From Rhizophagus irregularis (lineage: Eukaryota), in contig NC_089435.1 of NCBI RefSeq assembly GCF_026210795.1, positions 3,038,001-3,102,000 of the forward strand: a DNA stretch of 64,000 nucleotides. The letters run 5' to 3'. Positions 8,201 to 52,700 of the stretch are shown here, piece by piece (within the stretch, counting starts at the first letter, position 1; each line of letters opens with the position of its first letter). Below the pieces are notes generated by a model that saw only the letters and a program-made list of their open reading frames with translations, was not told the DNA's origin and made no database searches. The position numbers were made by a program, and so were the translations under genes.

Positions 8201-11200
8201 ACTGTTGTTGTGGCAATATTAATAAATTAATTTTTTTAAAAAATAAAATATTTGTTTATTATGGTATTAAAATATTTGAAAAATTATACCTGTTAGGATG
8301 TAATGTTGTATTATATATAAAATTAAATATTTTTTTTTTTATACATATATAAAAAATTTTAGAGCACATTATCTTACTATCTAGTGATCAGATTTTATTG
8401 ATCTTTGACTTATTAGATTCATCTTATTAAGTCAAATCAAATGTTATAATTTTATAATTATTAGATTAATATTTATTATAAGATATCAATTGAAGTACTG
8501 TTAATTTTATCTTATAATCTAATGATCAGAAACTGATAATTTATAGCTCATTAGATTTATCTTGTTTAGACAAATCTAATGGTTATTAGATCATAAAAAT
8601 TGGATTATTATTGGCTGAGATATTACGGTTTGAAATTTTAATAGCAATTCAAGGGACATGCTTGCTGACCGTAAAAAATTTAATAATAAATAACAGGTTT
8701 GCACAGTTTTTAATTGATTTAATAATTAAATGGTGCAAATCTGTTTTTTATTATCTAACCATTTAACAAGAAATGGTTCATGCCATTTCTTTATTAAACC
8801 ATTAAAAAAATGGTGCATACCCATTATTTGTTATCAAATTACTAATTAAAAATAATGGGTTTACACCATATTTATTATCAAATTGCTAATAATTTAATAA
8901 TGTAATAATGTGAACTCTTAAAACTTCATAGATTATATGAATTAGTTTTAACCCTTACAATTTAAGGGATAGTTAAATAAATTATAATGTTTAAAAGCTC
9001 ACTAACTTGTACTTAATTACCCTAGTTGGTTACAAGATTTGTATATCAAATCATCAGGATGTACATCTTGAAAGTAACGCAGTAATGGTTTTTCGGTTAG
9101 TGATGTAATGATTGATATACGCCCACAGAAATAGTATATAAAATTTGACGTCATATACAAGATTACGTGAGAAATTATTGCAAACACATGTCTATTTTCT
9201 ACGGAGTTTACATGTTTATAACATGACTCATCATGGTTAAGTAAAATATAGTATAAAATAGCCACTTTTTTCTCTTTATTCTCTTCAACTCCTCTCTCCT
9301 TTTTTATTACTTTTCGCTTTTCTTTTTCTTTTATTATTTTTTTCTTGTTAAGTATGGTAATAGGTAAGGTACAACCAACTCCACATCTCATTTTAAGCCG
9401 TAGGCACGACCAACTTCACGTTAAAAACTTTAAAAAAGTTAAAGCCATACTTAAACAAATTTTTTTAATAAAATTGAGTCGAGAAACCTGTGTTTATTGC
9501 TCGTTCGACTTTCCCACATTACGTATATATACGTACGTATTTTATGTATGTATGTACATAGTACGTATTGTGTATATATGTAAACCAAATAATTAGATGG
9601 GGGGATGAGAAAGCTTATTTTTGATTTTACAAAAATAATTTCTTTCTTGTTCTGATGCACATGTGCATTTTTTTTATTTGTTTTGATTTTTATGTAAATA
9701 ATTTTCTTTTATAATTTTCTTTCTTGATTTGATGCACATGTGCATAAGTAGTCGTATCTGGGGCCAGAACATAACTAAAAAAACACAGTTTACATATAGA
9801 ATTGGTCAAGTTGTGAATGTTGTTATATTATATATATATCTATATGTCCGAACGTCTCTGCTCAATTTTTGTTCTTAACAATCCAAATATTATTATTTTT
9901 TTTTTAATCCTATTAATTATAAACTGGTTGTATAAGATTATAGGTAAGTGGTTTCTTTTTTACCCTGAACGAAGCTTGCCACCTCTACGTGGTGTTCAGG
10001 AGAAACAGTTGTATGTTAATAACTGGCCAAGAGCAAGCAATATTTGCAATATTTCATTTTACATATTTTTGGAATTTTTGCGCCATTTTGTATTGAATGT
10101 CACGTAAAAATGTTTATTCATAATATTAGCATCATGTTACAAAAGTTAAGGATTCTTGTTGAACTCATTAAAATAAGTTTTTTTTTATTAAAATCAAGTT
10201 TTTTGTATTTCCTGAATAACTACCATTACAGTATAACCTTAGAAAATCTTTTCCCATGTGAAATTACATCTATATTAGTTGCTAAAATTATGCTTTCGTT
10301 CCAACTTTTAAAAGGATATGAAAAGCTTGTTTTTTGTATGCATAATAAAATTTTATAAAAAAAAAGTGACCCTAATCACTTTTAGTAGAATTGTAGAGTT
10401 AAATGATTAATCAAGCCTCAACTTTCGTTGATTAAACTAGTGAAACAAAAAAATAAACAAGAATTATATAACAGGGTTCTATTATACTACTAGTTATTAT
10501 AATGATTTTTTTTATGGCCTTATTGCCTTCAGATCCGTTATCTGTCATCCGACGAATCCGTTTAGTTCATCTGATTATCCGGATATCTGTCAGTTTTTAT
10601 TTATTTCATTTTAACGTTTTCTTTATATTAATTACTAAAGTTTATTTTTTTTCTCACCTTTGTTTTACAGGAATGGACTGATAGATACATTTTTCAGCCC
10701 ATTTGATTTCTTTCTTCCTTTTTGCCTCTTGAACTTTATTATTCACGCTAACAGTTGGTAGACTTTTCTTTCTCCCATAAAACCGTATCTCTTTCCACTT
10801 CTAATTTTTTATTTCCTCTTTTAGATTAGCCGATAGCCAGGTGTGTTAGAGACGCTAATAGTTAGAAATCCCATTTAAGTATTTTGTTTCATTTGTTTGT
10901 TCGAGGGTTTCTTGTTCTTTTTGGCCATTAATAACAGTCTTTTTTGGATTGATGAACAAAAGATTCAAGACTTTAGGTCCATTTCGACGTTAAGGTTTGT
11001 ATTTCATTTCGTTTAAAAAATTTTTTTTGCTCCTTCAACTATTACTAATCTTCTTTTTATAGAGTGGTTTTATTTCCTGAGCGGGTTTACTTAAAAACTG
11101 AATAAAAAAAGAAAAAGAAATAAAAATTACGTTCCTAAAAGAAAGAAGAAAACTGGTTAACGATGATCGAGGAGCAAAAAAAACTCTTTCAAATAAATGA

Positions 11201-11439
11201 AATACCTACTTCAAAGTCAAAAGTTCTGAAAGAAACATAATCTGAACTGTTTCTGCAAAAAAAAAAGAAAGCAACGGTTGGCAATAACAGAAAAAAAAGT
11301 CTTAAAACACAGACATACTCTTTATTCTATTCAAAGTCCCAATATATTGCTATAAGAAACAAAATTGATAATAATAGCTAAAGGACAAAAAAAGCTCGAC
11401 CTAAATAAAAAATAAAAAAGACCAAACCATTCTTAAATA

Positions 11440-11636
11440 CAGTGACACCTCTATAAGTGCACCCTCTATAAGTGCACGCACTATATAAATTCTCTTTAAG
11501 TGCACGGTGGACCTGATCCCAACTTATAAGAGCTCTTAATATTTTACTCTCTATAAATGCACACCATCTCTAAGTGCACATTCTACTATTTTTTTACTAT
11601 GGTCCCAAGGGGGGTGCACTTAGAGAGGTGTCACTG
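11440..11636. mobile_element. Tc1/mariner-pogo-type MITE
   Basis: TIRs of about 25 bp (cagtgacacctct[a/c]taagtgcaccc) with TA on both sides (11438-11439, 11637-11638). Internal taagtgcac repeats. Confidence 0.9.
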
Positions 11637-11856
11637 TACAAAAAAGAGAAAAAGGTTAGTAAGCAAAAAATCTTTCAACCGAAATGAAATATTTACTTCA
11701 GTGAGTTCAATTCAAACAGATTTTTGTGTTAATAGAGATCCTGGATCTTTCTGTAAAAAACAAGCAATCTCATGCGCCTTTTACTAACAAAGTTGTTAAA
11801 GTTGTGAAGGATAATTGCGCAGCTAAGAAAAAGGTCCAATTTGTTCCATCGTAAGA

Positions 11857-12209
11857 AGTAGTATGAAAACCCCAATTCTGGCTCACCCCCACCATATAAT
11901 CTAAAATACTACCACTTTATATAATCTAGTTACCACCATCATATAATTTTAATTACCACCATATAATCCACCTACCACTTTTCATATAATCTAGTTACCA
12001 TCATATAGTTTTATTACCACCATACAATTCTATTACCACCACACAATCTGAAAAAATTAACCGAACAAGAAATAGGATTTCAAAGCCAACGGAGCCAAAA
12101 AAGGTAAGGAATATTAACCCATCCAGGAAACCAGCCATGGAGTCAATAGAGCGGAATAGCAAGGCAAGCAATTTCCCTTATACCGAGAAAAAATGTAATT
12201 GAATAAAAG
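11857..12209 (+). repeat. Left terminal inverted repeat (353 bp)
   Basis: Reverse complement of 23428-23865 apart from an 85-bp difference. Contains (t)accacca-type subrepeats. Confidence 0.95.
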
Positions 12210-12248
12210 GTAGGTACCAAGTAACTATACAGATAAATAGTACATAAC

Positions 12249-12695
12249 ATGGTATATACCGCAGAAAAGTTAGCAACAATCTTTGGCTGCACAGTCTCTG
12301 ATCTTATGGCTATCAATAGAGAGATTCTAAAAAGCCACCAAACCCCGTACGCAGTATCAGTAATCCCCGAACTTGTGGGCCATATCCTGGAATACATTCC
12401 AAGTAGAAATTTCGGGACACATCTTCTAGAAGTCAGCCCAATCTGGAGAGCCGAAGCTGAACGAATACTCTGGAAGCGGCATAAAGAAGCCGAGGAGGCA
12501 TACGACAAAGCAGTAGAAAAGAAGGAAAAAGCAAATGATGCTCTTGGTCGATCAGAGGAGGAGGGTAATAGAAATCGTGACCTCCGTGAACTTGAATGGG
12601 AGGCATATCAAAAGGCTTGTAAAGAGAGAACAAATGCTGCAGTAGAGCATATTATGGTAAAAGAAGCTATTTGCCGTTGTAGCTTACAACTATAA
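12249..12695 (+). CDS. Element-encoded F-box-like protein with coiled-coil tail
   Basis: 'VIPELVGHILEYIPSRNFGTHLLEVSPIWRAEAERILW' fits the F-box consensus (LP.E....I..yL......l..Vs+.W). Confidence 0.55.
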   Translation: MVYTAEKLATIFGCTVSDLMAINREILKSHQTPYAVSVIPELVGHILEYIPSRNFGTHLLEVSPIWRAEAERILWKRHKEAEEAYDKAVEKKEKANDALGRSEEEGNRNRDLRELEWEAYQKACKERTNAAVEHIMVKEAICRCSLQL

Positions 12696-12857
12696 GTTAC
12701 TTAAGGATAGAGTATACATCAGGACGAGGATGTGCTCAGTGACTCGGAGGACAATCCCGATGACTCAGATGGTGAGGAATAGTTTAGGAAGACAGTACTA
12801 ATCTGTCTCCCTCTTTTTTTACCCTCATAGGGTAGGCGAACAATTAATTTTATTTTC

Positions 12858-12910
12858 AGAAAAAATGTAATTGAATAAAAGAGGAGTATAAAAAGTTTAC
12901 AAGATGTCAA
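12858..12910 (+). promoter_or_regulatory. Putative element promoter/leader motif upstream of pPolB
   Basis: The 24-bp sequence agaaaaaatgtaattgaataaaag (12858-12881) is identical to the inner ends of both TIRs (12186-12209 and reverse complement 23428-23451). Confidence 0.6.
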
Positions 12911-15900
12911 CACATCAAGCAAGAAGTGCCCAACACAGACAAGTCACCCGATCAGTTCTAGCTGAACTCAAGCAGGTACCTGTCAAGTCCATCCCATATC
13001 CCCGCTCAAATGCAAAATTGCAGGAATATGAGGATGAGATCCGCCAAATCCATGAAGCACAAGCGGCGGTAACCAATGAAGAGATAACCCGCATGATGCA
13101 AATTGATCCAGACCCACATTATGAGGTAGTCTTTGAACGTCGTGATCAGGTACGTATAGGAAAGGAGTTAACAGACTCAAACTTTACGGCTGATATTGCT
13201 ATAGGAACACCTGGAGAGCATGACTATGCTTCATTTCTTACAGCACACAGTCAAACAATCCAGAATATTCTTCAGGATGAAAGAAATCGATTGGGATCAA
13301 TAAAAGTAAGAATTGGAATATTTGCCACAATAAGACGTTTAGATTCTTACCTTGAGGGATTATTCGGAGATGGTAACTTTAGTGAAGATGATGGAGTAGA
13401 GTATATCTACAGATATAACATACCATTTAAAACTCGCAATATGCCAATCCTACCATCAACAGATATTAATGGTACATTTAACTTTGCATTAGCAAGAATC
13501 ATGCAGAAAGTAGAAGACTATGTAAATTACGGATCAGGTTGGGAATTCTATCGTGTAGAAAAAATATTTATAGAAATCTCGCAATTCCAACCACCCACAG
13601 GAGCAGGACATATACCACTCCCAAAAGATCTTGCCACGAAAAAGGGAGTAGTAAATCCAGCTAATGATGATGACAAATGCTTCCAGTGGGCAATCCTAGC
13701 AGCATTACATCCAGTAGAAAAGAACGCAGAAAGAATTTCCAAGTATAAGGAGTATGTAAATGAGTTAAACTTTGAAGGTATCGAATTTCCAGTACAAGCT
13801 GATGAGGTAATTCTAAGAAGATTTGAGCGACAGAATCCAACTATTGCCCTCTGCATCTGTGAATGGCGTGACCACCGCCTATGCCCAATATATGTTACTG
13901 ATAGGGATGATGCAGAGGGCCGTAAAATAATAGATTTAGTACTTATCAGTAACGGGGAAAAGCAGCACTATTGCTGGATTAAGAATATGAGCCGTTTAGT
14001 AAATAAACGTACAAAAGATGGACATGCAACATTTGTCTGCCGATGGTGTATCTCCCACTTCACACATCAACAAGAAATCCATGACAAACATGTAGCAATA
14101 TGTCGAGGATTAAAGAAAACCCCACAAGCAGACCGAATGCCATCAGTAAAGAAAGGAAATGATATATATGAATTCAAGAACTGGAAACGCCGCATGCAAG
14201 TCCCATATTACTTTGTTGCAGACTTTGAAGCCCTAGTAATGGACATACCACCCACAGATGAAGACAAAGATAAGAAAACCAAGAAAGTACAAGAGCAAAT
14301 CCCCTGCTCATACTCGTATATTAAGGTAAGATATGATGGTGTAAGTGAATCACAGAAGATATTTACAGGAGAAAATGCAGCACAAAAATTTGTAATCGAA
14401 ATGCTAAATGAGGCTAAAGCAATCCGTAATGAATTCAGAAACCCAATGGAAATGATGCCGTTAACAACCCAAGAGCAAGCAAGTTATGATAATGCAATAA
14501 ACTGCTGGATATGTCGTAACCCCTTAGATGGAAATAAAGTAAGAGACCACTGCCATATTACAGGAAGGTATCGAGGTGCAGCACATAGAGGATGTAATCT
14601 TGACTTATCCATAAAACCTCGTGAAATGCATATCCCAGTAATCTTTCACAATTTATCAGGATATGATGGACACATAATTATGCAAGGAATTGGTGCAATG
14701 GAATGTGAGGATGATATTGATCCTATCCCTTATAACATGGAAAAGTATATGGCATTCAAGTTAGGTTCCCTCCGATTTATAGACAGCTTACAATTCATGA
14801 AATCAAGTCTCGACAAATTAGCATCCAATCTAGGTGCAGAAAAATGTAGAGCACAAGAATGTAGTAATCCACAACACTTATGGCGAATTGATGCAGGTAG
14901 ATGCTTTGCACATCCCGAAAACTTTAAGATAACACGAAGTCAAATATCACCTGAATTACTCGAGATTTATCTTAAGAAAGGTGTCTACCCGTATGAATAC
15001 ATGGATGACTGGAAAAAGTTCGAGAAAACTAGTTTACCACCTAAAGGAGCATTTTATAGCAAACTTAATGAAACCCACATTAGTGATAAAGAATATGAAT
15101 ATGCACAGTATGTATGGGAAAAAGCAGGATGTAAAACAATGCAAGATTATCATGACATTTATCTCAAAACTGACGTCCTCCTACTAGCCGATATATTTCA
15201 GAATTTCCGAGAAATGGCCTTGAAAAAATATGGGTTAGATCCTCTCTGGTATTATTCAACACCAGGCTTCGCATGGGATGCACTATTCTTAATGACAGGG
15301 CAAAGATTGGATCTTATAACTGACCAGGACATGTACATGATGGTAGAACAAGGATTACGTGGTGGAATCTCTATGGTAAGTAAACGATATGCTCGTGCAA
15401 ATAATCCAGGTATGGGAGAAGGTAAATGGACCGCAGATAAGCCCAAGTCATCTATTCTATACTTAGACGCAAATAACCTATATGGATGGGCCATGTTGCA
15501 ATACTTACCTACAGGTAACTTCCACTGGATAAAGGAGGAAAACGAGTTATCTAACATTCAAAGGCAAATAGAAAGTAATGAAATACCAGACAATTCTTCT
15601 GAAGGATATATCCTTAAAGTTAAACTGGAGTACCCTCAAGTCCTCCATTCACAACACACAGATTACCCCCTTGCACCAGAACGAATGAAGGTTAAGAAGG
15701 AATGGCTTAGTAAAAAGCAGCAGGAAATAATAGCACGCTCAGGACAACGATACACACCCACAGATAAGCTCATCCCTAACCTATTTGATAAGGATGAATA
15801 TGTAGTTCATTATAGAAATCTCCAGTATTATGTTAGCCAGGGCTTAGTAATCAAGAAGGTCTATGAAGCTATAAAATTCGAGCAGGCTCCATGGATGAAA

Positions 15901-16801
15901 CCATATATAGAATTTAACACCGCCGAACGTGCTAAGGCTAAGAATGATTTTGAGAAGGACTTCTATAAACTCATGAATAATAGTGTATTTGGTAAAACTA
16001 TGGAAAATCTCAGGAAACGTGTACGTGTCTCAGTAGTACAACCCCAAACCCATCCCAAGAAATATAAAAAGCTTACCTCAGATCCTGCATTCAAGAGTCG
16101 TAAAATATTCTCAGAAAATCTTGTTGCAATCCACCGACGAAAAGTGGAGGTAATGCTTAACCGTCCAACATATGTGGGTATGAGTGTGCTTGACCTCTCG
16201 AAGCTCTGTATGTATCAATTCTACTATGATACTCTTAAAGTACGATATGGTGAAAAAAATCCAGTTATGTTATACAGACACAGACTCACTTCTTGTACAA
16301 ATCCAAACTGAGGATATCAATGCAGACCTCATAGATATGGCAGACCAATTTGACTTCAGTGATTATCCTAAAGATCATCCTGTACGAAAAGCATTAGGTG
16401 ATAAGACTGACATAAATATGAAAATCCCAGGGAAATTTAAGGATGAATGTAATGGAGCAGTTATAGCAGAATTTATTGGCCTCCGTCCCAAAATGTACTC
16501 CATTCTCAAGGTAGGGGATGAGACCACCAATCCAAAACATGGTATCCGTAAAGCTAAAGGTGTCCCCTCAAAGGTAGTTAAAAAAGAGTTCCACCATGAG
16601 CGGTATAATAAGGCACTCTTTGATCCTAAACATAATGATACAGTCACCTTTAGAGCAATCCGATCTGATAGACATGCCATAAATGTTATAGAAATGTCGA
16701 AGGTGGGGTTATCCCCTATGGATGATAAAAAATGGATTGCACAAGATAATATCACAATGTATGCACATGGAGATTATAGGATACCACAACTTGAAAATTA
16801 A
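12904..16801 (+). CDS. Protein-primed family B DNA polymerase (Polinton type), split by one frameshift at A7 16253-16259
   Basis: GSGW; OTU-like 'DDKCFQWAILAALHP...QHYCWI'; exonuclease 'VADFEA', 'FHNLSGYDGH' and 'YLKTDV'; 'KGVYPYEY'; polymerase motifs 'LDANNLYG' and 'KLMNNSVFGKT'. 'YTDTDS' lies in the +1 ORF 16184-16801. Confidence 0.95.
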
Positions 16802-17856
16802 TATAATATATGAGTAGGAGGCAGCATAGTATCAGATGGCACAACTAATAATTCTTCTCGAGTAAATATTTTTTTAGGTCCATCAGATAACCTATATATA
16901 ACCGGCTGCCCATCAACAACTGTGGAAGATTCAATTGTATAAACTTTAGTAGACCATATTGGATCAGTTGCACGTCTCCTACCTTGGTAATCTGAGTTAT
17001 CAAGTAAGTATCTCACAAGAGAACCAGCTGGTAAACGTATTTCTTCTGCACCTACAGGTCTATCCTTCCGAATTTTTGAAGGTAGTGCATACACTTGATC
17101 TTTCTGGATTGCCTCAACTGGAGACATACCTAGCAGACGAGTATTAGAATTATTTAGCTCATTCACAATATCAGAAAGGTTCTTAACCCAGGCAGTATTC
17201 ACATCTTCTGTAAGGAGTTCCTTTGCATCCTGTATTTTGAAAAGTCTCTCTGCTAAAGTTCGATTATACCGTTCAACAATAGCCTGACTCTTATGAGTAG
17301 TACCCACCCGAATACGCACACCTTTTTCATCCATTAATCGGATAACTTCATCCTTAAATTCTGATCCCCCATCTACTTGTAAAACTCTTGGCCAAATAAG
17401 CGGGCAGTCTGCTTTACCATAGATCTTTTTAAATGCCTTAGCAACACGTGCAGAGCTGCGATCTTCTAAAGGTACTGAAGCTTTATATCGGCTAGCAACA
17501 TCTACAATATTCAGACAGTATTTATACAGCTTTCTATCTACAGTATCATAGGGCATATATAAGATATCTGCTTGATGATACATATTTGGTCGAGTAATCT
17601 TATTAAAAGAAACCTGTGGAACATACTTGGGTATAGGTGAGTGTATTTGCCATATAGCCTGTTTATGCAACCACTCTGTAATATCAGATATGTTAAAATC
17701 ATGGCCTTCAGCTTGCACTTTAGCCCAAAGTTTTTCAGGAGTACGATAATATCCACATGGATGGTAATAGATTTGTTGAAGGATATAATTTTGTTCGATT
17801 TGTTTATTAAATGTAGGGTCTATAAAAATCTGTGGAACTGGCAATGGAAGATACAT
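16798..17856 (-). CDS. Retroviral-like (rve) DDE integrase, Polinton type
   Basis: 'QADILYM' (D), 'LQVDGGSEF' (D), 'AIVERYNRTL' (E). Polinton-like N-terminus 'LQQIYYHP' and C-terminal 'WSTKVYTI...YRL...FTREELL'. First ATG at 17856. Confidence 0.93.
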   Translation of the reverse strand: MYLPLPVPQIFIDPTFNKQIEQNYILQQIYYHPCGYYRTPEKLWAKVQAEGHDFNISDITEWLHKQAIWQIHSPIPKYVPQVSFNKITRPNMYHQADILYMPYDTVDRKLYKYCLNIVDVASRYKASVPLEDRSSARVAKAFKKIYGKADCPLIWPRVLQVDGGSEFKDEVIRLMDEKGVRIRVGTTHKSQAIVERYNRTLAERLFKIQDAKELLTEDVNTAWVKNLSDIVNELNNSNTRLLGMSPVEAIQKDQVYALPSKIRKDRPVGAEEIRLPAGSLVRYLLDNSDYQGRRRATDPIWSTKVYTIESSTVVDGQPVIYRLSDGPKKIFTREELLVVPSDTMLPPTHILY

Positions 17857-20180
17857 CGTTAAAGACACAGATTACAAAGCTTGCACATACATTGCAATCA
17901 CAAGAGCAATATATAAAATACCTGTATGGTGTAATCGAGGGTCATGAATCTGAGATAGAAGAACTTAGGCAAAAAAATGCTGAGTTGCGTGCAAAGCTTA
18001 AGAAAGCATTAGAAACGGCATCACTAAAGGAGGAAGGGCTTCAAGCATTAGAACGTCAGCTGATTGAAGTTGATACTCTAAATATTCAACTTAAAGATCG
18101 AATAAAAGAACTTGCTAATAGACAACGGAAAAACATGGCAGCAATTCCTCCTGACCCTATTACAGAAATCTTAAATAATCGGACAACTATAGCAAATAGT
18201 GTAGCTGGTATTCGTATTCACCTTGATCGTACAACTATAGCAGCACACCCTCATATAAATCATTTATTTAACACTGCAAATGATAGTCTTGATGCCATTA
18301 TCCGATATGCTAATGAGTTGCGAAATATTATAGAAGATCAAGATAATATGGAGGATAGACTTGAAGGTTTGTTAGATGATGCACATAACCGTGAAGAATA
18401 TCTTAGACATGAACTTAATAATACACGTGCTACTATACTGAGAACAAGACGTACCTATGAGGATGCATATGCAAATGAAGTGCGTCATCGCCAACATTGG
18501 GAAGTCCTTGCACAAAATACTCAGATCCAATTGGCTAACATCCAGGCTCAATATGCTAACAGTCAAATTCAACTAGCTAATGTCCAGAGAGAACGTGATG
18601 AGAGTAGAAGAAATGCTCATAGATTATTACAGCGCTATAATACTGAAACAGAACGAAGTAGAAGGCGGGCTAATGGTATCATTCAGCAAGCTCGAGCATG
18701 GAGAGGGCAATTTTTAAACTGTCGTAATCATGGTCAAAATTTGCAAAATCAGGTCAATAATTTGAATCAACAGATTCTAGCATTACAAAATAACCCTCCG
18801 GTAATACAACAACCGATAATGGCAGGATATGCACCTAAAAAATTTAGAGGAGCATCTGGTGAAGATCCAGAACTTTGGCTTCAAGAATTCAGGCAATGGT
18901 GTGAGTCTGCTGGACTTGATCCTGCTGCTAATGCTAGAACTCGTGTTAGGATTCATGGGGTCTTTGAGACTTTACTTGAAGATGATGCTAGAGATTGGTA
19001 TGAAACACATATCAAAGGAAAAAATTGGGAATGTGTAAATCTTCTGGATAATACTGGTGTGGCCAATCTTGCTGCTTTTAATGCTTTGAATAATGGCGCT
19101 ATACAGGCTGTAGCGGCGAATCAATTTCGTGGAGGGGCTAATGTATTACATGGACAAGCAGCTGCAGTTAATACTATTACTGGTGCTAATTTTATACCTG
19201 ATCATACTGTATGGGATGAAGATTGGTCAATAGTCGAGGGTCGTCCTACTGATATAGCTGTTAATAATCCTAATGCTAATAATGGAGGTACAATTGTGGC
19301 TCCTGGAATACGTATTGGACAATTAATATATCGTTTTAAGCATTACTTCCCTACTATAACATCTGAAAAGTCTAAGCTTGCATTTAATGCTATTGTTCAG
19401 GGTAGTGATACTGTAAGCCGATTCTATTCTAAATTACGAAGAATGGTTAGACTTGCATATCCAACTCTTCCAGAGGTAAATCAGAATGAATTAGTACGGC
19501 AACAGTTCTTAAATGGTCTTTCCAGTGAAAATAAGTTGGATGCGCGACGTATTGGTTTAGAAAATTCAGTTGCATCTATTCTGAATAAATTGGAAGAAGT
19601 TGAGAAATACAGGACAGATATGCCACCTACTCCTATAGTTACATATCAGGGTCCAACTTTAGCGGATATTGAGAATCTTATAAATTCTAAAATTCCTATG
19701 ACTACGGCTAGATCATCTGCAGTACCAGTACCATCTTCTAGTCCATTTTCAAGTCCTCAAAATGATACATCATTTCAGAGATTACTTGCTTTAGCATATA
19801 AATTAGGTCTTCCAAGAGATATCGATATAAGTAAAGTAACCCTTAGTGATCTTGAAATATTTATTGATACAGAACTTAATAAAAATTTACCATCTGACCA
19901 TATTTACCGTGGTAATCAGGTATTTGGTATAAGTTCAGGTACACGCAAACCAAAGAAATCAAAGAAATGCTCAAGTTGTGGAAAATCTGGTCATACTAAG
20001 AGTTCCTGTCCAAAATCTAAGAAGGGAAAGAGGAAAACAAATTATGCACATGACTCCTCTGATTCCTCTAACTCTTCTGATGCCTCTGACTCCTCTGACT
20101 CCTTTGATAGTGATTCAGACTCTGGACATGCCTGCTATGGATTAAAAAAAAAAGCCTACAGAAAGGAAACGTGTAGATAA
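17844..20180 (+). CDS. Gag-like protein: long N-terminal coiled coil, Ty3/gypsy-like capsid domain and CCHC zinc knuckle
   Basis: 'PKKFRGASGEDPELWLQEF', 'LLEDDARDWY', MHR-like 'IVQGSDTVSRFYSKLRRM', 'RQQFLNGLS', and the knuckle 'CSSCGKSGHTKSSC' (CX2CX4HX4C, 19968-20009). Confidence 0.85.
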   Translation: MEDTSLKTQITKLAHTLQSQEQYIKYLYGVIEGHESEIEELRQKNAELRAKLKKALETASLKEEGLQALERQLIEVDTLNIQLKDRIKELANRQRKNMAAIPPDPITEILNNRTTIANSVAGIRIHLDRTTIAAHPHINHLFNTANDSLDAIIRYANELRNIIEDQDNMEDRLEGLLDDAHNREEYLRHELNNTRATILRTRRTYEDAYANEVRHRQHWEVLAQNTQIQLANIQAQYANSQIQLANVQRERDESRRNAHRLLQRYNTETERSRRRANGIIQQARAWRGQFLNCRNHGQNLQNQVNNLNQQILALQNNPPVIQQPIMAGYAPKKFRGASGEDPELWLQEFRQWCESAGLDPAANARTRVRIHGVFETLLEDDARDWYETHIKGKNWECVNLLDNTGVANLAAFNALNNGAIQAVAANQFRGGANVLHGQAAAVNTITGANFIPDHTVWDEDWSIVEGRPTDIAVNNPNANNGGTIVAPGIRIGQLIYRFKHYFPTITSEKSKLAFNAIVQGSDTVSRFYSKLRRMVRLAYPTLPEVNQNELVRQQFLNGLSSENKLDARRIGLENSVASILNKLEEVEKYRTDMPPTPIVTYQGPTLADIENLINSKIPMTTARSSAVPVPSSSPFSSPQNDTSFQRLLALAYKLGLPRDIDISKVTLSDLEIFIDTELNKNLPSDHIYRGNQVFGISSGTRKPKKSKKCSSCGKSGHTKSSCPKSKKGKRKTNYAHDSSDSSNSSDASDSSDSFDSDSDSGHACYGLKKKAYRKETCR

Positions 20181-21054
20181 AAAGCCTACTGATAAGAAAA
20201 AATCACAACTTGAAAGGCAGCGTATTATCTTTGAGGTTTTTATACAACTCTTAAAGCTTCTGGTTCAATCTTTCGTTAATGCTGTACCAAAAGAGACTGT
20301 TATATCTGCTTACAATGCTCTGAATGCTGAATTCATTAATTATAAAGAACCAGTACTCAGTCAGCTTAAAGGAGAACCCTCGATAAAAACACGTGAAAAA
20401 GTTTGGGATAATGTTAAGGACCTTTTCACATCTATCCTTCATCCTATGATTTCGGTTGTAACTAATAGTATGGCTGCAAATTTAATCCGTAAAAATGATG
20501 ATGTTATATGTAATAATGACTTATGGTCTTCTATAGCAGGTATTGGAATTGTTAATCGCAAGTCTGCTAGTGATGTAGTCACTATTAAGACCAAAGTAGT
20601 CGCACCTGAGAGTGAAAAATCTTTAGTTATTCCTACGACAATTTTCGATACTGGTTCTGATAGTTCTCTGATATCTAACAATATTGTAAAGCGCCTAAAT
20701 CTTGACGTTGATAGAAGTAATGCTCCTGACCTTAGTGGTGTTGCAACAAAATCTGATACTATTGGGACAGTATATGGTCTTGGTATTCTTGTATATGATG
20801 GGGAGAACTCTAAAAAAATTGAAGATGACTTCATGGTTGTTAAGAGTGATAAGGACTTTTTATTGCTAGGTGTACCTTGGATTGATCGTGCTAATGTCAT
20901 TCTAGATTTCCAAAATCGGCAACTGACCATTCCTCTATCATCACGTAAAAAAATTACCATTCCAATTTCTCTACATAAACGGAAAACTAACGTGATTTCC
21001 TTGCAGATGGATACTATCGACTTAAAAAAAATTCACACTCTCGAGGAAGATTAA
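20146..21054 (+). CDS. Retropepsin-like aspartic protease; its frame opens at the A10 tract overlapping the gag 3' end
   Basis: 'TIFDTGSDSSLIS' (D at 20647) and 'LLLGVPWI'. The frame is open without stops from 20146, right after TAA 20143-20145, well upstream of the ATG at 20446. Confidence 0.85.
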   Translation, partial: KKKPTERKRVDKKPTDKKKSQLERQRIIFEVFIQLLKLLVQSFVNAVPKETVISAYNALNAEFINYKEPVLSQLKGEPSIKTREKVWDNVKDLFTSILHPMISVVTNSMAANLIRKNDDVICNNDLWSSIAGIGIVNRKSASDVVTIKTKVVAPESEKSLVIPTTIFDTGSDSSLISNNIVKRLNLDVDRSNAPDLSGVATKSDTIGTVYGLGILVYDGENSKKIEDDFMVVKSDKDFLLLGVPWIDRANVILDFQNRQLTIPLSSRKKITIPISLHKRKTNVISLQMDTIDLKKIHTLEED

Positions 21055-21173
21055 CCTGTCATCTATGTGGAGCAAGTTTTGACTTTCCCTCTAAGTTAAA
21101 GCGTCATCTTGCTAGGAAAAATCCATGTGTTTCCCAAACTTCTGCGGCAATGATGGGCAGTGGCGGGCAGTGA
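21021..21173 (+). CDS. Short zinc-finger frame (not in the ORF track), -1 relative to the protease
   Basis: Reads LKKNSHSRGRLTCHLCGASFDFPSKLKRHLARKNPCVSQTSAAMMGSGGQ*. There is no ATG between the upstream stop (20988) and the finger. An A_AAA_AAA heptamer lies at 21024-21030. Confidence 0.6.
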   Translation, partial: LKKNSHSRGRLTCHLCGASFDFPSKLKRHLARKNPCVSQTSAAMMGSGGQ

Positions 21174-21285
21174 CAGGGCAGTGCCCAAATTTTTTCAGCA
21201 GTGACGGGCAGTAACAGGGTAGTGCCCAAATTTTTTCGGCAGTGACGGGCAGTAACAGAGCAGTGCCCAAATTTTTTGGCGGTGA
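21157..21285. repeat. 41-bp GC-rich tandem repeat, 3 copies, between convergent genes
   Basis: Unit approximately gcagtgacgggcagtaacagggtagtgcccaaattttttcg. Confidence 0.85.
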
Positions 21286-21301
21286 TTAGCCTTTACAAAT
21301 A

Positions 21302-21814
21302 TTACATTTGCCATGTTACTCTGATTTCTAGGTCTTTACGGGTTTCTATGAGTTTTTCAATGGCATTTCTATTTTTAAAATATCGACTACATCTGATATC
21401 TAGCTTTTGAAGGTTTGGTAATATATGCAGGATTTCACTTAGCAAATCTCTAACGTCACCTTTTCCACCATAGTATTGATAATCTATTATGCTAAGTTCC
21501 TGAATATTGGGACAAGCTTGTAGCATTTTTACAATACAAATGGGCCATAATTTTACCCCATCCATATTAAGCTTTCTGATATATTTTCCACATACTGTTC
21601 CTGGTTTTGTAAGATGTTTATACATTTGGAACTCCTTCACATTATAGCGGTTATAAAGGTCTACTTCACCCCATAGGAGAGAGTTTGCTACTACAGCCCA
21701 TTTTCGACACACTAATGCATAATTGCAAAGATAATGCCAACGGGAGTAAGTACCTTCATATGAAGTTTTGAATATCTTTTCTAAAAGTTCAAAAGATAAG
21801 CTATTGTTTGTCAT
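21302..21814 (-). CDS. F-box/LRR-like protein carried by the element
   Basis: F-box 'LSFELLEKIF...LCNYALVCRKWAVVANSLLW', followed by LRR-like 'IRKLNM', 'CPNIQELSI' and 'LPNLQKLDI'. Confidence 0.8.
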   Translation of the reverse strand: MTNNSLSFELLEKIFKTSYEGTYSRWHYLCNYALVCRKWAVVANSLLWGEVDLYNRYNVKEFQMYKHLTKPGTVCGKYIRKLNMDGVKLWPICIVKMLQACPNIQELSIIDYQYYGGKGDVRDLLSEILHILPNLQKLDIRCSRYFKNRNAIEKLIETRKDLEIRVTWQM

Positions 21815-21918
21815 GGTATCTCATATGAGATATTGATGGTGAAGTTTTATTTAATTAGATTTTTTCTTAGGATAAAATAATTTGAACATTTCTTTTCTAT
21901 CAATAGAAAAAACCAAAC

Positions 21919-22710
21919 ATGCTTACTTTTAGTGAACTTACTCCATCTCTTACTGTTACTGAATTTAAGATCAATGTTGAAGGGCTTGATTACACCGTGC
22001 TTGGTCATAAGCTTGAACCTACTAAGGATGTTATTGCCATTAATAGCAACTTTATTCATAAAGCTTTTGAGGGTTATGAACAGTACTTGTCTAAACCAAA
22101 AGGTGAGAGGCGATGCAGACGAAGTACACCTGACAATCCATTAAATAGACGGCGACGTACAGGGGATGGTAGCACTTTTAATGCATGCATTGAGTTTGTT
22201 ATCATCTTAGCTGATACTGTACATACTATTCGTTATTTTCCTAAATCTGGTAGTATACAAGTTTTCGGGTCTTTTGATCCTGTTGCTATCTTCTTACGTT
22301 ACCTTTCTGAATGTTCCCTACCTGAATTTTCTTCTGTAGAACTTGTGGGTGAAAATAAGGCTCTCCTGCGCAATTATAAATTTGTGATTAATATTGGGGG
22401 TGATAAGTTTATTAATCTTTCTACCTTAGCATATGCTTTAGAATCTATAGATGGTATTCGTGAGATTCTTCCCTTTCCGATAAAGTATATTAAGAATGAT
22501 GCAGGTGATATTCATTCTAAAATTGCTATAATCTTTACTTCAAAGATTCGGGTACATATCTGGCCTAAATCTGGTAAGGTTAATATATTTGGCACTAAGA
22601 CTGAATTGGATGCTGATATGGTTTATAAGTTCTTACAGAAGTTGTTTTCTAATCCGAATGATTTTGGGGATTTTATTTGTGATGCACCTATTCCAGATTG
22701 TGAGAGGTAA
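21919..22710 (+). CDS. TATA-binding-protein-like protein of asfarvirus (ASFV B263R-like) type
   Basis: Two TBP-like repeats, 'IRYFPKSGSIQVFG' and 'VHIWPKSGKVNIFG'. Also 'RRRRTGDGSTFNACIE', 'AINSNF.H...GYE' and C-terminal 'PIPD', all colinear with ASFV pB263R as I recall its sequence. Confidence 0.75.
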   Translation: MLTFSELTPSLTVTEFKINVEGLDYTVLGHKLEPTKDVIAINSNFIHKAFEGYEQYLSKPKGERRCRRSTPDNPLNRRRRTGDGSTFNACIEFVIILADTVHTIRYFPKSGSIQVFGSFDPVAIFLRYLSECSLPEFSSVELVGENKALLRNYKFVINIGGDKFINLSTLAYALESIDGIREILPFPIKYIKNDAGDIHSKIAIIFTSKIRVHIWPKSGKVNIFGTKTELDADMVYKFLQKLFSNPNDFGDFICDAPIPDCER

Positions 22711-22731
22711 AAAAAATGGTTTCACTGAGAA

Positions 22732-23403
22732 CTAAAAACCCTCTATTTGTAAAATCCAGCAATCGCATTCCTGACTTCTTGTTGGCATAAGACATTCGTC
22801 ACATAGAGTTATAGCCAACTCATTTTTTAGTCTATCCAGCTGACTCTCGGTGGTCGGTGCAAGATTCTGATAGTATTCATTGAATTCATTCTGCTCTACT
22901 TCATCTATGTCTTCATCTGTGTCTTCGTCCATATCTTCATCTCCTTTAATATGGTAGATGCTGAATTCATTTCTATATTCATCATTAGGATTCGTGAATA
23001 TTCTTTGTATATTGTAATCTATAATGTTGAATGTTGTAGGTTTCTTTTTTGATAATATTTCTACTAAGTCTAATAATGCATATGCTAATTCTTTATCCTC
23101 TGAGAAGTTCTTAATGATATCTGAAAATCTTTCATATATTGCCATCTCATCTGGTAGAATAGAATATCTTATTCGTGATAAAAGTGATGGATGTATCCAT
23201 ATATCATCACCTTCTAACATCTCATCAAATATTTCTACTAGCTCTTCTAATCCAGATACTAACATACTTTCTTTGCTAAATTCAGAATCTAAAGCTTTTA
23301 AATATGCTATATCTAAATACCACATTATTTCCTTTACCCATTCTTCTATGTTGAGTTCAAACTGGCCTAGTATACGTCTTAGTAATGGTCTGTATTGTGA
23401 CAT
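22732..23403 (-). CDS. Hypothetical acidic protein with a C-terminal Cys cluster
   Basis: Intronless 223-aa ORF starting 25 bp inside the right TIR boundary. Ends 'CDECLMPTRSQECDC'. Confidence 0.65.
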   Translation of the reverse strand: MSQYRPLLRRILGQFELNIEEWVKEIMWYLDIAYLKALDSEFSKESMLVSGLEELVEIFDEMLEGDDIWIHPSLLSRIRYSILPDEMAIYERFSDIIKNFSEDKELAYALLDLVEILSKKKPTTFNIIDYNIQRIFTNPNDEYRNEFSIYHIKGDEDMDEDTDEDIDEVEQNEFNEYYQNLAPTTESQLDRLKNELAITLCDECLMPTRSQECDCWILQIEGF

Positions 23404-23427
23404 CTTGTAAGTCTTTTATATGTGAAT

Positions 23428-23865
23428 CTTTTATTCAATTACATTTTTTCTCGGTATAAGGGAAATTGCTTGCCTTGCTATTCCGCTCTATTGACTCCAT
23501 GGCTGGTTTCCTGGATGGGTTAATATTCCTTACCTTTTTTGGCTCCGTTGGCTTTGAAATCCTATTTCTTGTTCGGTTAATTTTTTCAGATTGTGTGGTG
23601 GTAATAGAATTGTATGGTGGTAATAAAACTATATGATGGTAACTAGATTATATGAAAAGTGGTAGGTGGATTATATGGTGGTAATTAAAATTATATGATG
23701 GTGGTAACTAGATTATATAAAGTGGTAGTTAAATTATAGTAAAAGTGGTAGGTGGATTATATGGTGGTAATTATATTATATGATGGTGGTAACTAGATTA
23801 TATAAAGTGGTAGTATTTTAGATTATATGGTGGGGGTGAGCCAGAATTGGGGTTTTCATACTACT
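23428..23865 (-). repeat. Right terminal inverted repeat (438 bp)
   Basis: Reverse complement of the left TIR with about 85 bp of extra subrepeat around 23700-23815. Confidence 0.95.
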
Positions 23866-25964
23866 TAAGATCACTCTTAATGGTAGATTGCGTGATGAAT
23901 CAAGTGACACCTGAAAAAGTAATTTCTGATAACAACAAGCGCACAAAAGATACTGAAAGTACGAATAGTAGGGCAAGGAGATTGGTTAAAGGATAGATGT
24001 CTAGTTTAGGGTTTTTTTATTGTTCCTCATGTATGTAGATAGGTATCGCCTTTAACAGGCATTTCATTATATATATATATTTTTTCATATGTATAGTATG
24101 TTTTCTTTACAAAGCTCTAATAAAATAAAATTGGGTTAGCAAAGAAAAATCCTGAACGAGACTTACCATAAGAAGTAAGATTTTCCATTATTTTTTTTTT
24201 TTTTTTATAACAAAGGAAAAATTTTATTAAAAAAAAATTTGAAAACTCAAATTATACATCATGATTACTCTAGCTATTAAACAAGATCGAATAAAAACTA
24301 GTGAAAAGTTGGTGACTTAAGATTTTATGTTCAAAGGAACTATCTACCATCATGCCTGCCCAAATAGGTTCTTAAAATTTGCTAATAACAAAGCTAAAAG
24401 CAACAATACTACTATTCGTACATCCTTTGGTGAATAACCATGAGAGACTTTTCCACCACAACACCTTGAAATACTCCACAACTACATAGAAATAATAAAA
24501 TTTTTCTATGCATAAGTAACAAACTATATAAAATAAAACACAATACAACACCAATTTCTAAATGTTACTATAATTTGTTATAAAAAAAAAAGTCATATGA
24601 TAAATAACAACACATAACATTTAAATTTTTCAAAAGCTACCAATAATTTTCTTAAAAAATAACCGCATACATATAAAAAAAAGGTATACAAAAACAGTAA
24701 ATACGGCTGAAAACTATAAATAAAGTTTTCAAATTAAAATTTCTAAAAATAAAAATCAAAAATCATTTTTCAAAAATAAAACTGAAAATACATGCGAGTG
24801 AAAAAATACAGGACCATTGTCAAAAAATAATTTTTCAAAAAACTGAGAGCCTACGGGATCAGCAAAATATCCGATAAAAGCTTACTGTGAACTTACGGGA
24901 ACAGAGCCTATTGAGAGCCAACGGGATCAACTATCAAATATATAATTTTCCATAAAGACGTAATAAAAATATGATCCAAAACTTAAAACAAACACATGAT
25001 AAAATTTCATATTTGACTACTAATAAATCTCGATCAACAAAAACTATTGGTTGATCTTCAATTTTCGATCTACTAATAAATCTCGATCGGCAAACAATAT
25101 TGCTTTGATTTTCAATTTTTCAATGAAATACACGACAGGAAATTGCCTAAAATATTTATTGATCATCAAGGTCACGTGTATACTCCAGAAAATTTTCCCA
25201 TGAAAGAAAGACAATATTCTTTAACAAAGAAAAAAAAAAGGGAAAATATAAAAAATTTCAAATGTAAAATATAAAATATTAAACATTTCAATAAATACAT
25301 AAAGTTTTAAAAGAAAAAAAATCTAATAAAACTAAAATGCCTCTTTCTAAATAAACTTGTAAAATTGTTTTTTGTAATTTTCGAACTAAGCGTCAAAATA
25401 AATTAACTAGTATAACACACTAGTATTCTTAAGCCAAGTAAAAGGGCCCACTGCATATTTGTGGAAATTATTTTTCGTATATTATCAAAATACTATAAAG
25501 TTTTTTCTTTTACAAAAAAACTATTGCTACCAACAACTGGCTTAAAAACTGCGCTATCATAAAAAACAAGAAATAAAAGAAAGAGTTTAGGTTTACAAAA
25601 AAGGGACAACTCTTAACAGAATACTTTACAACCATATAAAACACAAGAACAAGTAAAAAGAATGTAAAAAAATAAATTTATATTTTTCTAAAAAATTTTT
25701 ATAAAATTTCGAGTCATTTTAATCCCCAGCAAAGGCATATGTGTTCTTCAAAAATTTTTGGTATGTAAAGGAAGGAGAAAGAGTTTTTTCCCGATCAAGA
25801 TTTTCCATTATTTGGCGATAGTATGATTTTGAAGTGGTGATCATCCTGCATGACCTTCCTTATTCATTCACTTTTTCGCTTAATTTGTAGTTTGTCCTCT
25901 GATCTTCATGCAGATTTTCATCTTTTTGGGAATGCACCATGTGAACTTCGTAGTTGAATCTTAT

Positions 25965-49756: not shown

Positions 49757-52700
49757 AGGGCCCCTGAATGCCACTGTGGCGCATATATGAAACCTCGTCC
49801 TTGACAGTTATAATAAGTGTACATAAAAATTTTAATAAAGAGTGTACATATATTTTAAAATTTATTATTAAATGTACTACATAAATTTATATATAATTTT
49901 TGCGTTCTAATAGAGTGTACAGACAAAGTTGAATCAAAAGCAAATACAATGTACGACAAAAGTTTATTGATAAATCACATGTACACTAAAGGTTATAGAA
50001 GGAAAAAAAACTATTTTAAAACTATTCATCGTTAGAATTAGCATTATTTTTTCTCATCCGCATTATTTTTTCTGCTTCTTTAATGGATTGTTCAAGTTCG
50101 CAGGACTTTCCAACAAAATGGAAATATGTCGCATATTGAAGATCTCCTAATTTTAGTGTTTTTCCTAACCAGTGAGAAGTACCATGATATTCTTCTAATA
50201 CAGAACCCAAATGTGCAATGAAACGAAATGGATTAGACTCACATGTGAATTGTGTACGGTCTTTGCTTATAATCGGAATAAATTTACATGCTGAATCCGG
50301 CTTGAGATCATACAAGCGTGCATGAATTTTTCCTTCGTTTAAACCAGATAATAAATCTACACGAACATAGCTTGATCCAATTTTCTTAAATTTGTAAAAA
50401 ACCCATAAATTTTGAAGAATAATAAAAAAATTTAGTAAAAATAATAAAAATTTAAAATAATTTACCTCAAATACTGCAATAATTTCAGCAATGACAATAG
50501 AATGACTATTTTCGCAATAATAATAAAAATCTCCTCTTTTGAATTTAGATGATTGTGGATTTATTTTTGTGGAATCAAAGACCTTTTTGCATGCAGTTTT
50601 CCATCGTGTAATTCGTCCTTTTGTTCTTGCTTGATGTTCAGTATTACTTAATCGGTCCTGACGAACGGCAGCCATAATATCCATTGTGCCTAGTTCAGTG
50701 ACTACTGTGAGATTATTTTTATTGAGTGTAGCTTTATTTCCAACTTTTTTCTTTTCCTTTTGAGTAAAGTAATCATATTTTTCTAAAGTATCAAATAATT
50801 TATTAAAACATTGAAAATAAAGAATAATAAAAAATTAAATTCAAATTACCTCGATAATATGACATTGCTTGCATTATTGCTAATGGACTCAATTCATGAG
50901 TTTTTCCAAATGCCTTATTTATCTTTTCAAAAAAATTATCCTCAAAATCCAGTTCCAAAGTTGATTGAGTATTTTCATTATCCATTTCATCTAAATCATT
51001 ATTAGGAACGTCAAGATGTTCAGGAAATTTGGATCTATTCAATATGCGTTGTTGATGTCGTGTGAGCAATTTGCCAATATCACATTCATTATCCAATTCA
51101 TCCTCTGATTCACCCTCAAGTTCATCAGTTTCACTTGTGTTCTCCATAGGTATATTATGATTATTTATTTTTTTAAGTGAATGTAAGGATTGTTGAATTA
51201 ATTCTGAAAAAATTTCCTTATTTACTACTATGCCAAGACTGCGAAGTATAATTTTCATAGCATACGAAGTCTAAAATTTCAGTAACATACAATTAATAAT
51301 AATAAATGATGGATAAATATAAGATAATAATGTAATATATACCTTTTCTATCATATTATCAATATCAAAAATTGATGGAAAATCCGTCAAATTTTTTGGC
51401 AATTTTTCTTTAACTGTGGATAATTTGATATTATAACCATCATTATTATCTGTTCTGATTAAATCACCTAAGATTATATATATAATTAATTTAATTATTT
51501 TTAAAATAACTAATAAGTTTTAGTTAAATTACTAATCTTTCATTTCAATCATAATATTTTTTAAAATTTTTTCATTCATTGATAAGAAATCTAGTACGGT
51601 AAAATCTTCAATAATCCGTCATGCACAGCCAAATATATGCTCAAGAAAGGCAGTAGAAATCATCCACGGACATAAAGGATAATTTGAATAAAAATTTGGC
51701 CATTGTTGAATTAATAATATCAAGGTTAATCCCAGATAGATAAAATCATCGCATGATTGCAAAGATATTCCAAATTTATTTCCATTACACGTGGCTTGAT
51801 TTGCTTTTAAAAAATGTTGTACTCCTGCAAAAAAAATGCATGCGCCCCAAGCAAATCCTACACGATCTATATGGGCCATGCTATGTGATTTCCATGATTC
51901 GAACAAAATTCCACAAAAAAAATGGTAACAAGCGTCACCATACATTTCGTCATCATTATTTTTCACAGAATAATCTGTAAAGCCTATGAATAATAAATAA
52001 ATTATTAATTGTATTTTTTAACTAAAATTACTTCACATTTTACTTGCCTTTTAAAACAGATGATGAAAAAAATCTCTCAGCTGATTCATCTGCCTGCTTA
52101 TCTTTAGGATTAAGAATATTACTTGTTAAACCTGAATAAATTTCAGAATTTTCTTTTAAAATCCACAAATGTTCAGTAGACATAATGTAATATCCAATTG
52201 GACACACTCTTGTCCACTATTATGCATATTTCGTCCTTAATAATCAAATAAAAATTTATTTATATAAAATCAAAATATAATTTCAGCATATATTTACAAT
52301 ATTTTACCCTTTTTCACACAATGATAAATATCCGTTCCACAAATAAATGGTAATGAATTATCCATCAAATGTAAGGCTATAGGATATTTCATTTTACTGA
52401 ATATAGAAGTATTCTAATAAAAAAAAGTCCATTTTAATTATTGCTATTTAAAATCTTTTATTAAAGATCTTACCTTTTTAAGTGCAAGTTCACGAGTAAA
52501 AGTTGGATCTTCGCTATAAACTTCACCTAACCAATTCCGATCAAGAGTAGCACCATCAAAATATAAACCAATTGTCATAGCTCCTGCACGATTTAATTCT
52601 CTCATAATTAAATTGTTATCATGTGTATTAATTTCTGCTTTTTCCGTTTGGTCTGACGGATTGACAGCAATCACAATTGGCGGTATTCCAGGAATACAAG

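Follow-up and report, generated by a model that had tools for sequence, protein, structure and literature searches.

A Rhizophagus Polinton with a Gag-protease gene and no recognisable jelly-roll virion module

Polintons copy their linear form from terminal inverted repeats (TIRs) by protein priming, using a protein-primed DNA polymerase of family B (pPolB), and insert it by means of an integrase, usually with a target-site duplication (TSD) of 6 bp. Gag capsids are, to our knowledge, tied to reverse transcription wherever elements package genomes with them. Here we describe a DNA element of Rhizophagus irregularis in which a Polinton backbone and a Gag-type gene occur together. It is a Polinton/Maverick unit of 12,009 bp (5' end AGTAGT, 3' end ACTACT) located at 11857-23865 of the window, i.e. 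of the whole analysed stretch of 64,000 nucleotides (contig NC_089435.1, positions 3,038,001 to 3,102,000). Two published records come close to it. Table S1 of PMC4028283 lists Polinton-1_GI (P_Gi1.1) of Rhizophagus (Glomus) intraradices, which is 11,954 bp long and negative for the major capsid protein (MCP), penton, ATPase and protease; the word 'gag' does not occur in the main text of that paper. In Starrett 2021 (PMC8502044), the legend of Fig. 5, which refers to 'MELD viruses (and related elements)', gives 'TBP' and 'Matrix/Capsid/NC/Pro' as labels of PolB elements and leaves them uncommented. In the main text of the same paper 'Gag' and 'retropepsin' appear once each, in this legend, and Rhizophagus is named in the legend of Fig. 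3.

Of the architecture itself we are almost certain: the element, a multicopy Polinton of Rhizophagus, has no recognisable jelly-roll module and bears a stable Gag-protease (Gag-PR) gene without a reverse transcriptase (RT). The element is a Polinton and not a long terminal repeat (LTR) retrotransposon, and, as far as tested, it lacks the virion module of a polintovirus. The features on which the argument depends are the following (CA, capsid; NC, nucleocapsid; ORF, open reading frame):

11852..11856, no strand: left TSD, TAAGA, 5 bp, read from the sequence
11857..12211, plus strand: left TIR, 355 nt, starting with AGTAGT and containing internal 19-22-nt repeats
12904..16801, plus strand: protein-primed-type PolB with Exo I/II/III and Pol A/B/C motifs and an EndoVII/HNH-like insert
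16798..17856, minus strand: rve integrase, 352 aa, PF00665 at E 7.9e-9 (above the curated cut-off), D,D,E motifs
17844..18818, plus strand: N-terminal long coiled coil of Gag, residues 1-325 (model helices 3-312)
18819..19640, plus strand: predicted two-lobed retroelement CA with its own Met start and an Asn/Gly/Ala-rich insertion of ~85 aa
19968..20009, plus strand: single CCHC zinc knuckle in the basic NC region, a Ser/Asp-rich linker being next
20144..20153, plus strand: A-run at the Gag/PR junction, A10 in the window copy, which puts PR out of frame
20146..21054, plus strand: spacer of no known family and retropepsin, FDTGS at 20644; C-terminal part of Gag-PR
21030..21173, plus strand: C2H2 finger without ATG, frame -1, downstream of an A8 run at 21024; zf-C2H2 at E 1.3e-4
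23426..23865, minus strand: right TIR, 440 nt, ending with ACTACT
23866..23870, no strand: right TSD, TAAGA, read from the sequence

The Polinton anatomy proposed in the first-pass annotation, a single unit bounded by TIRs and a TSD and encoding pPolB and integrase, was borne out. Long TIRs (355 and 440 nt) with AGT-repeat ends are followed on both sides by a short TSD (TAAGA), and the two arms are perfectly complementary except for an 85-nt repeat duplication in the right one. General Polinton biology assigns the origin role to the TIRs, and by this analogy the left TIR is likely a replication origin. The coding space was said to be nearly all accounted for, and indeed ORFs fill 95% of the space between the TIRs, with the biggest gap amounting to 208 nt. 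Both core enzymes of a Polinton/Maverick, a protein-primed-type PolB and a retroviral-like (rve) integrase, are encoded. Among the PHROGs the polymerase matched DNA polymerase at E 0.0025, and its insert matched endonuclease VII at E 7e-7; none of the Pfam PolB families was matched, so that the polymerase is classed by motifs and PHROG. An HNH insert has been reported for one pPolB group (10.1101/2023.08.22.554363). In the window copy the polymerase ORF is split in two at 16253 by one additional base in an A-run. This base is missing from the main contig in four of four runs, and also from run X4, and the pPolB frame is open in the majority form (4/4 runs). The integrase has 2,270 relatives, a search of viral contigs with it gave nothing, and its start overlaps that of gag head-to-head by 13 nt.

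The start region of the integrase gene also shows signs of splicing. Contigs of X18, a probable RNA run, contain intron-like skips at 17538-18454 on the minus strand and at 13150-13492 on both strands; of 10 joints tested, seven are GT..AG (five on the minus and two on the plus strand) and one is GC..AG. An intron at 17838-17921 takes out the integrase start, and the next Met gives 261 aa, which is the size of several NCBI gene models. Together with the minus-strand splicing in X18, this intron indicates that the 5' half of gag is overlapped by minus-strand transcripts.

The CA model (residues 326-599) consists of two helical lobes with a mean model confidence (pLDDT) of 68. When it was compared with 48,161 PDB representatives, ranks 1-34 of the best 50 structural rows were retroviral, retrotransposon or domesticated capsids, with PEG10, dArc and MOAP1 among the closest, and the first unrelated row within these 50 appeared at Z 5.3. 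The top match was the C-terminal domain of PEG10 (Z 9.5, root-mean-square deviation 2.3 A, 85 residues), while HERV-K Gag (Z 9.4) aligned with both lobes over 182 residues. The Foldseek PDB rows listed were all retroelement-type capsids (best E 0.025 and 0.12), and in BFVD, where E was at least 0.1, Gag rows were mostly on top. With E<=0.1 as threshold, Retrotrans_gag matched 10 of 15 aligned members, and in one relative, P0295, it passed the curated cut-off; by sequence, PEG10 was the top match of CA, at E 0.017, and the Atlas match of CA was 0.93, with 115 of 256 features shared. A three-copy CA complex prediction, in which the alignment was not used, scored 0.00 and was counted neither way. 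The Gag fold foreseen in the first-pass annotation is thus supported, with single scores that are modest.

The retropepsin identity held as well, with Asp_protease_2 at E 4e-4, Ty3 Gag-Pol as the best PDB sequence match (E 0.0019) and an FDTGS motif. A Gag with CA fold and NC knuckle, followed downstream by a retropepsin, is a combination of Ty3/gypsy traits. The N-terminal coil, which is 41% identical to that of locus L002 (dN/dS, the ratio of nonsynonymous to synonymous rates, 0.37), may have a matrix-like role.

Gag and PR had been taken for two ORFs, with the protease starting at 20446. However, its frame is open from 20146, and in sister copies both parts form one protein of 1069 aa. Three of the 15 proteins listed for the nearest cluster have this length, which equals that of an intron-less in-frame fusion, and a contig of RNA library X19 (depth 2.4) is without the extra base at 20144; from these two facts we infer that the working gene encodes one coil-CA-NC-spacer-PR polyprotein. 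The window copy is either defective or mis-assembled at two homopolymers (16253 and 20144). Among 46 proteins with the motif, many of whose NCBI rows are gene models, the NC/PR-junction A-run leaves the frame intact in 34 and is soon followed by a stop in 12. The sparse cover in RNA runs X19 and X20 says nothing on the expression level.

The zinc finger, previously listed as an ORF, does match zf-C2H2, but no ATG precedes the finger in its frame. It is a candidate frameshift extension of PR, and in the window a lysine run comes before this ATG-less -1-frame finger. A lysine run closes 22 of 26 distant and 21 of 24 near protease-complete ORFs, and such an end occurs elsewhere in 7/120 integrases, 11/66 TBP-like proteins and 35/123 other matches, the sequences being related and hence non-independent. 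Both A-runs resemble recoding sites. Programmed frameshifting is nevertheless speculative, because no stimulatory RNA structure was found behind either of them (z -0.42 and 0.03).

No Walker A motif occurs in any of the six frames of the element. The FtsK/A32 packaging ATPase, expected of a polintovirus, had no Pfam or PHROG match, nor had the double jelly-roll (DJR) MCP and the penton, and no unassigned ORF exceeds 223 aa. An adenain-like cysteine protease also had no match in these general Pfam and PHROG scans, made with no dedicated profile for it. The ORFs without assignment have 223 and 148 aa, and a jelly-roll, judged by sequence and not by folds, is likely absent from the element. Of the retroelement parts, no RT family was matched (the sole YxDD-like match sits within pPolB), no long direct repeat flanks gag among the 20 largest repeat families shown, and neither the RT nor the RNase H that define Ty3/gypsy was found in the element. 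Two earlier assertions are therefore retained: that no DJR, penton, ATPase and adenain module is recognisable (no Walker A, no Pfam/PHROG matches), and that Gag-PR is not a recent nested retrotransposon, for which the lack of LTR, RT and internal TSD, the linkage in other copies and the purifying selection on CA all speak.

The linkage is best seen in a rhizosphere metagenome (run X2), where one contig of 9,442 nt covers 12868-22351, from pPolB through the TBP-like gene and including integrase and Gag-PR. In R. irregularis, annotated proteins match the element proteins at 98-100% identity; the Gag and integrase have adjacent accessions (GBC27048.2 and GBC27049.2), and neighbouring tags join Gag with the TBP-like gene (OCT59_030060/OCT59_030058 and RhiirA1_447915/447920). 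Summed contig depth is flat over the element and ~10- to 70-fold higher than over the flanks in four runs, a value that is not a copy number. For the near-identical family, in which alone the linkage of pPolB to Gag-PR is seen, the Gag-PR module belongs to the element. Further away, L002 (67% CA identity) has kept the head-to-head overlap of the integrase and gag starts, and Gag and integrase proteins can be paired, indirectly, by equal contig sizes in two families of ~65% identity (6578; 7249 and 5708). The integrase/gag layout is not universal, because locus L001 has a different small ORF upstream of gag. This ORF, of 92 aa and with two short repeats, lies at L001:142-417 in the place of the integrase and belongs to no Pfam family. 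CA dN/dS was 0.24, 0.29 and 0.25 in the three pairs tested (dS 0.86-1.04), from which CA is judged to be under purifying selection. As to whether pPolB-integrase-Gag-PR synteny is conserved under such selection, the overlap in L002 and the CA ratios speak for it, and L001, without an adjacent integrase, speaks against it.

Contigs of X17 and X18 contain the empty site, with ~30 other letters at the joint, and in X4 a different flank is joined at exactly 23865. These joints confirm the element ends and suggest recent mobility. Both empty-site contigs come from probable RNA runs, and the ~30 letters are absent from the window to the right of the element (11847-11856 / 23873); the insertion may lie in a host transcript, or it may have deleted target DNA. 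A gap at 18685-22734 in X4 was considered as a sign of Gag-less copies and rejected, as only ~69% of X4 was analysed and the gap is bridged by no contig.

The Gag-PR gene has a wider family. A Gag profile search returned 885 representatives, and the following results rest on the best 150. All 11 named among 14 representatives looked up are Glomeromycota (Rhizophagus, Glomus cerebriforme, Entrophospora), and Paraglomus is also among the relatives. The CA insertion region was kept in 43 of 43 aligned rows. At E<=0.001 no RT, RNase H or integrase was matched by any of 41 long representatives; of 149 relatives, the longest has 913 aa. The first-pass annotation would have given up its reading had Gag-PR proved to be part of an LTR element with RT; these long relatives match no RT, while pol in another frame of distant relatives is still conceivable. 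Gag searches of viral contigs and of prokaryotic genomes found nothing, and one metagenome scan yielded 2 short loci. One reading frame of a metagenomic contig of 1,934 nt (P0081) runs from PR through a lysine run and a C2H2 finger to an integrase of 53% identity, without RT. P0081 is thus one relative in which integrase and Gag-PR unit are joined, and it hints at Gag-PR-finger-integrase polyproteins in relatives; such a fusion is 1 of 120 integrase matches listed, and a search with P0081 gave only two weak finger matches.

Based on these observations, we suggest a functional swap of the virion module, because CA, NC and an intact protease motif are kept and no MCP, penton, ATPase or adenain is recognisable. 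The linear form would be copied by pPolB from the TIRs and inserted by the integrase with a 5-bp TSD. Gag-PR would be produced as one coil-CA-NC-spacer-PR polyprotein and matured by PR through self-cleavage, and NC might co-condense the genome during assembly. Such co-condensation would make a packaging ATPase unnecessary: Gag needs no pump, since it co-assembles with its cargo. DNA would be the cargo that serves the element, as there are no RT, LTRs or single-strand gene layout. The particle could then carry the genome from one nucleus to another within the coenocytic mycelium, or from hypha to hypha where these fuse. That Gag particles form is probable; that they carry the DNA of the element is, taken as a whole, close to an even matter, with doubt slightly prevailing. 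Unlikely, though consistent with the same data, is the broadest version: a Glomeromycota lineage of RT-less DNA viruses, with protein-primed PolB and Polinton integrase, whose linear DNA would travel in a protease-matured Gag capsid, a Varidnaviria shell having been swapped for an Ortervirales one. The wider family (Rhizophagus, Glomus, Entrophospora, Paraglomus) would then be the capsids of these viruses, and recoding at the A-runs would set the Gag:PR ratio and, in some, load a finger-integrase fusion.

Several points weigh against packaging of DNA into Gag particles. Particles, cleavage and packaged nucleic acid are predictions from the genes, and Gag particles normally take up RNA. The window copy is frameshifted in two genes (pPolB and Gag-PR), and in L001 (70% CA identity) the 450 nt preceding gag contain no integrase. 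In one probable RNA run, spliced contigs of the minus strand extend across gag and point to antisense transcription there. The distant Glomeromycota relatives of Gag-PR are known as proteins, and an RT may follow in another frame. As to the fold, both best Foldseek E-values are weak, Z 9.5 is within the range that the structural tool calls common for helical proteins, the Atlas value rests on fewer than half of the features, and CA residues 75-120 have pLDDT <50. Moreover, 9 of 72 Polintons are without MCP, protease and ATPase, so that a shell is dispensable for mobility (PMC4028283).

The last point leads to the explanation we take most seriously after DNA packaging, and which is quite possible even if we would not expect it: Gag-PR may serve a capsid-less Polinton as an accessory gene under selection, one that moves element mRNA or protein between nuclei in the manner of Arc or PEG10, escorts the integration complex or blocks competing retrotransposons, and does not package the DNA genome. 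Capsid-less Polintons are on record (PMC4028283), domesticated capsids are among the best structural matches, the element contains other host-modulating cargo (F-box, TBP-like), and purifying selection on CA is compatible with any function. On the other side, the catalytic DTG motif has been kept along with CA and the NC knuckle, whereas restriction-type Gags usually lose the protease, and the presence of Gag-PR coincides with the absence of the whole DJR module. A jelly-roll capsid or penton so divergent that it is hidden among the small ORFs, with Gag as additional cargo, is very improbable. A DJR capsid has 350 aa or more, and here no unassigned ORF reaches beyond 223 aa, the largest non-coding gap is 208 nt and Walker A is absent in six frames; still, the 223-aa and 148-aa ORFs were judged by sequence. 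The literature points both ways, as a sister Polinton of G. intraradices (11,019 bp) retains the ATPase and an HHpred survey found neither MCP nor penton in Polinton-1_GI (both PMC4028283), while A32-like ATPases are reported in Glomus and Rhizophagus assemblies (10.64898/2026.06.19.733378).

Two further explanations bring in retrotransposition. NC knuckles bind RNA, and RNA libraries contain element sequence; Gag particles might therefore package element RNA, to be copied by a host Ty3/gypsy RT in trans, giving a retro-like second route. We find this improbable in an element without LTRs or RT, which has genes on both strands between its TIRs and retains an intact pPolB in its majority form; besides, spliced transcripts would give intron-less copies, and the DNA contigs are colinear. 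Slightly less credible, and largely refuted, is the idea of a functionless hitchhiker, the relic of an LTR retrotransposon inserted in one Polinton. Related DNA viruses that are integrated do harbour nested retrotransposons (Ngaro in EMALEs, PMC8547959), 12 of 46 Gag/PR junctions are out of frame and L001 has no adjacent integrase. A relic, however, would hardly show CA dN/dS of 0.24-0.29 at dS near 1, an integrase/gag overlap that is identical at 67% CA identity, or 1069-aa frames open in three copies, and neither LTR, RT nor internal TSD was found in the element.

The remaining features of the element are:

12249..12695, plus strand: ORF of 148 aa, F-box-like by eye only, in a region variable among copies
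21157..21279, no strand: tandem repeats, three 41-nt units (two in runs X1 and X2)
21302..21814, minus strand: F-box/LRR-like ORF, 170 aa, PF12937 at E 1.6e-4, below the curated cut-off
21919..22710, plus strand: TBP-like ORF of 263 aa; contigs of giant viruses and of other viruses contain distant relatives
22732..23403, minus strand: acidic ORF of 223 aa, no family assigned

Two F-box-like ORFs had been proposed. The one at 21302-21814 is upheld by its Pfam match, whereas the 148-aa ORF gave no F-box Pfam match at E<=1; BLASTP found the two unrelated to each other, and loose contig ends fall at 12487-12788 in several runs. The TBP-like label at 21919-22710 survives only weakly and indirectly, 3 of the 32 members of its family having a match to Pfam TBP (best E 0.008). 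Its relatives at 22-27% identity lie in six viral loci (L003-L008), two of them labelled GVMAG, and all five viral relatives scanned match TBP at E 1e-4 to 0.08, which suggests exchange of this ORF with giant viruses. The 223-aa ORF had no significant Pfam, PHROG or PDB-sequence match, and PDB sequence searches with single CA, TBP-like, pPolB, 223-aa and F-box ORFs returned nothing useful.

The element differs from its surroundings in base composition (GC 36-40% inside versus 15-35% across the remaining window), and tblastn matches of all its proteins within the window are confined to the element itself; Rfam and tRNA scans had no matches. Host-type genes, kinase-like and Sel1-like, were recognised by eye in the flanks, among them a host-typical cluster of kinase-like and Sel1-repeat ORFs at 29457-49496. 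Several long minus-strand ORFs without obvious host-gene character, at 50022-54303, possibly form a second transposon-like unit. Immediately to the left of the element lies a unit of 201 nt (11438-11638) resembling a miniature inverted-repeat transposable element, with 27-nt inverted arms (96%), whose borders coincide with loose contig ends in other runs, and an imperfect 53-nt inverted repeat at 10982-11222 is possibly another small non-autonomous element.

With a DNA-to-DNA element that shows no recognisable virion module and has kept CA, NC and protease under selection, one can test directly whether a pre-made DNA genome can be packaged by a Gag shell; the element also bears on how capsid replacement happens across viral realms. 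Arbuscular mycorrhizal fungi, with their nuclei in one cytoplasm, would gain a candidate vehicle for the transfer of DNA from nucleus to nucleus. Judging by its empty sites, the family seems to have been active recently, so that material should be present in standard cultures; Mavericks have been described as recently expanded (10.1101/2021.03.30.436303).

The novelty of the gene set is limited, as it was probably labelled once in 2021 and not followed up. We consider it likely that the family drawn in Fig. 5 of PMC8502044 is the one described here; that legend labels the genes without an analysis of conservation, selection or mechanism. A literature search, thin on subscription journals, found no analysis of a Gag-encoding Polinton beyond it, and the passages of PMC11296320, 10.64898/2026.06.19.733378, 10.1101/2021.03.30.436303, PMC11161782 and PMC8547959 that were covered do not describe one. 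The caveat in the first-pass annotation, that a ~12-kb Glomus Polinton lacking ATPase and protease has been catalogued, proved right: Polinton-1_GI resembles the element in host genus, in size (11,954 versus 12,009 bp) and in having no MCP, penton, ATPase or adenain (PMC4028283). Likened by host, size and missing genes, not by sequence, the two probably represent one family.

With canonical Polintons/Mavericks (polintoviruses, adintoviruses) the element has in common the TIRs with AGT-repeat ends, the TSD, pPolB and the rve integrase; it differs from them in its Gag-PR gene and in a TSD of 5 bp, and neither a DJR MCP nor a penton, FtsK ATPase or adenain can be recognised in it. The Gag-PR of Ty3/gypsy elements (Metaviridae) and retroviruses shares with it the two-lobed CA, the CCHC NC, the retropepsin and the CA-NC-PR order. 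Unlike Ty3/gypsy, however, the element has no RT, RNase H or LTRs, its integrase is of Polinton type and encoded on the opposite strand, and its CA contains a lineage-wide insertion of ~85 aa and is preceded by a 300-aa coiled coil. Ngaro elements in EMALE virophages provide another case of a Gag-like gene within an integrated DNA-virus-like element (PMC8547959). In EMALEs, though, a whole retroelement, with RT, RNase H, recombinase and its own repeats, interrupts the virus, whereas in the Rhizophagus Polinton Gag-PR alone is present, as a fixed gene.

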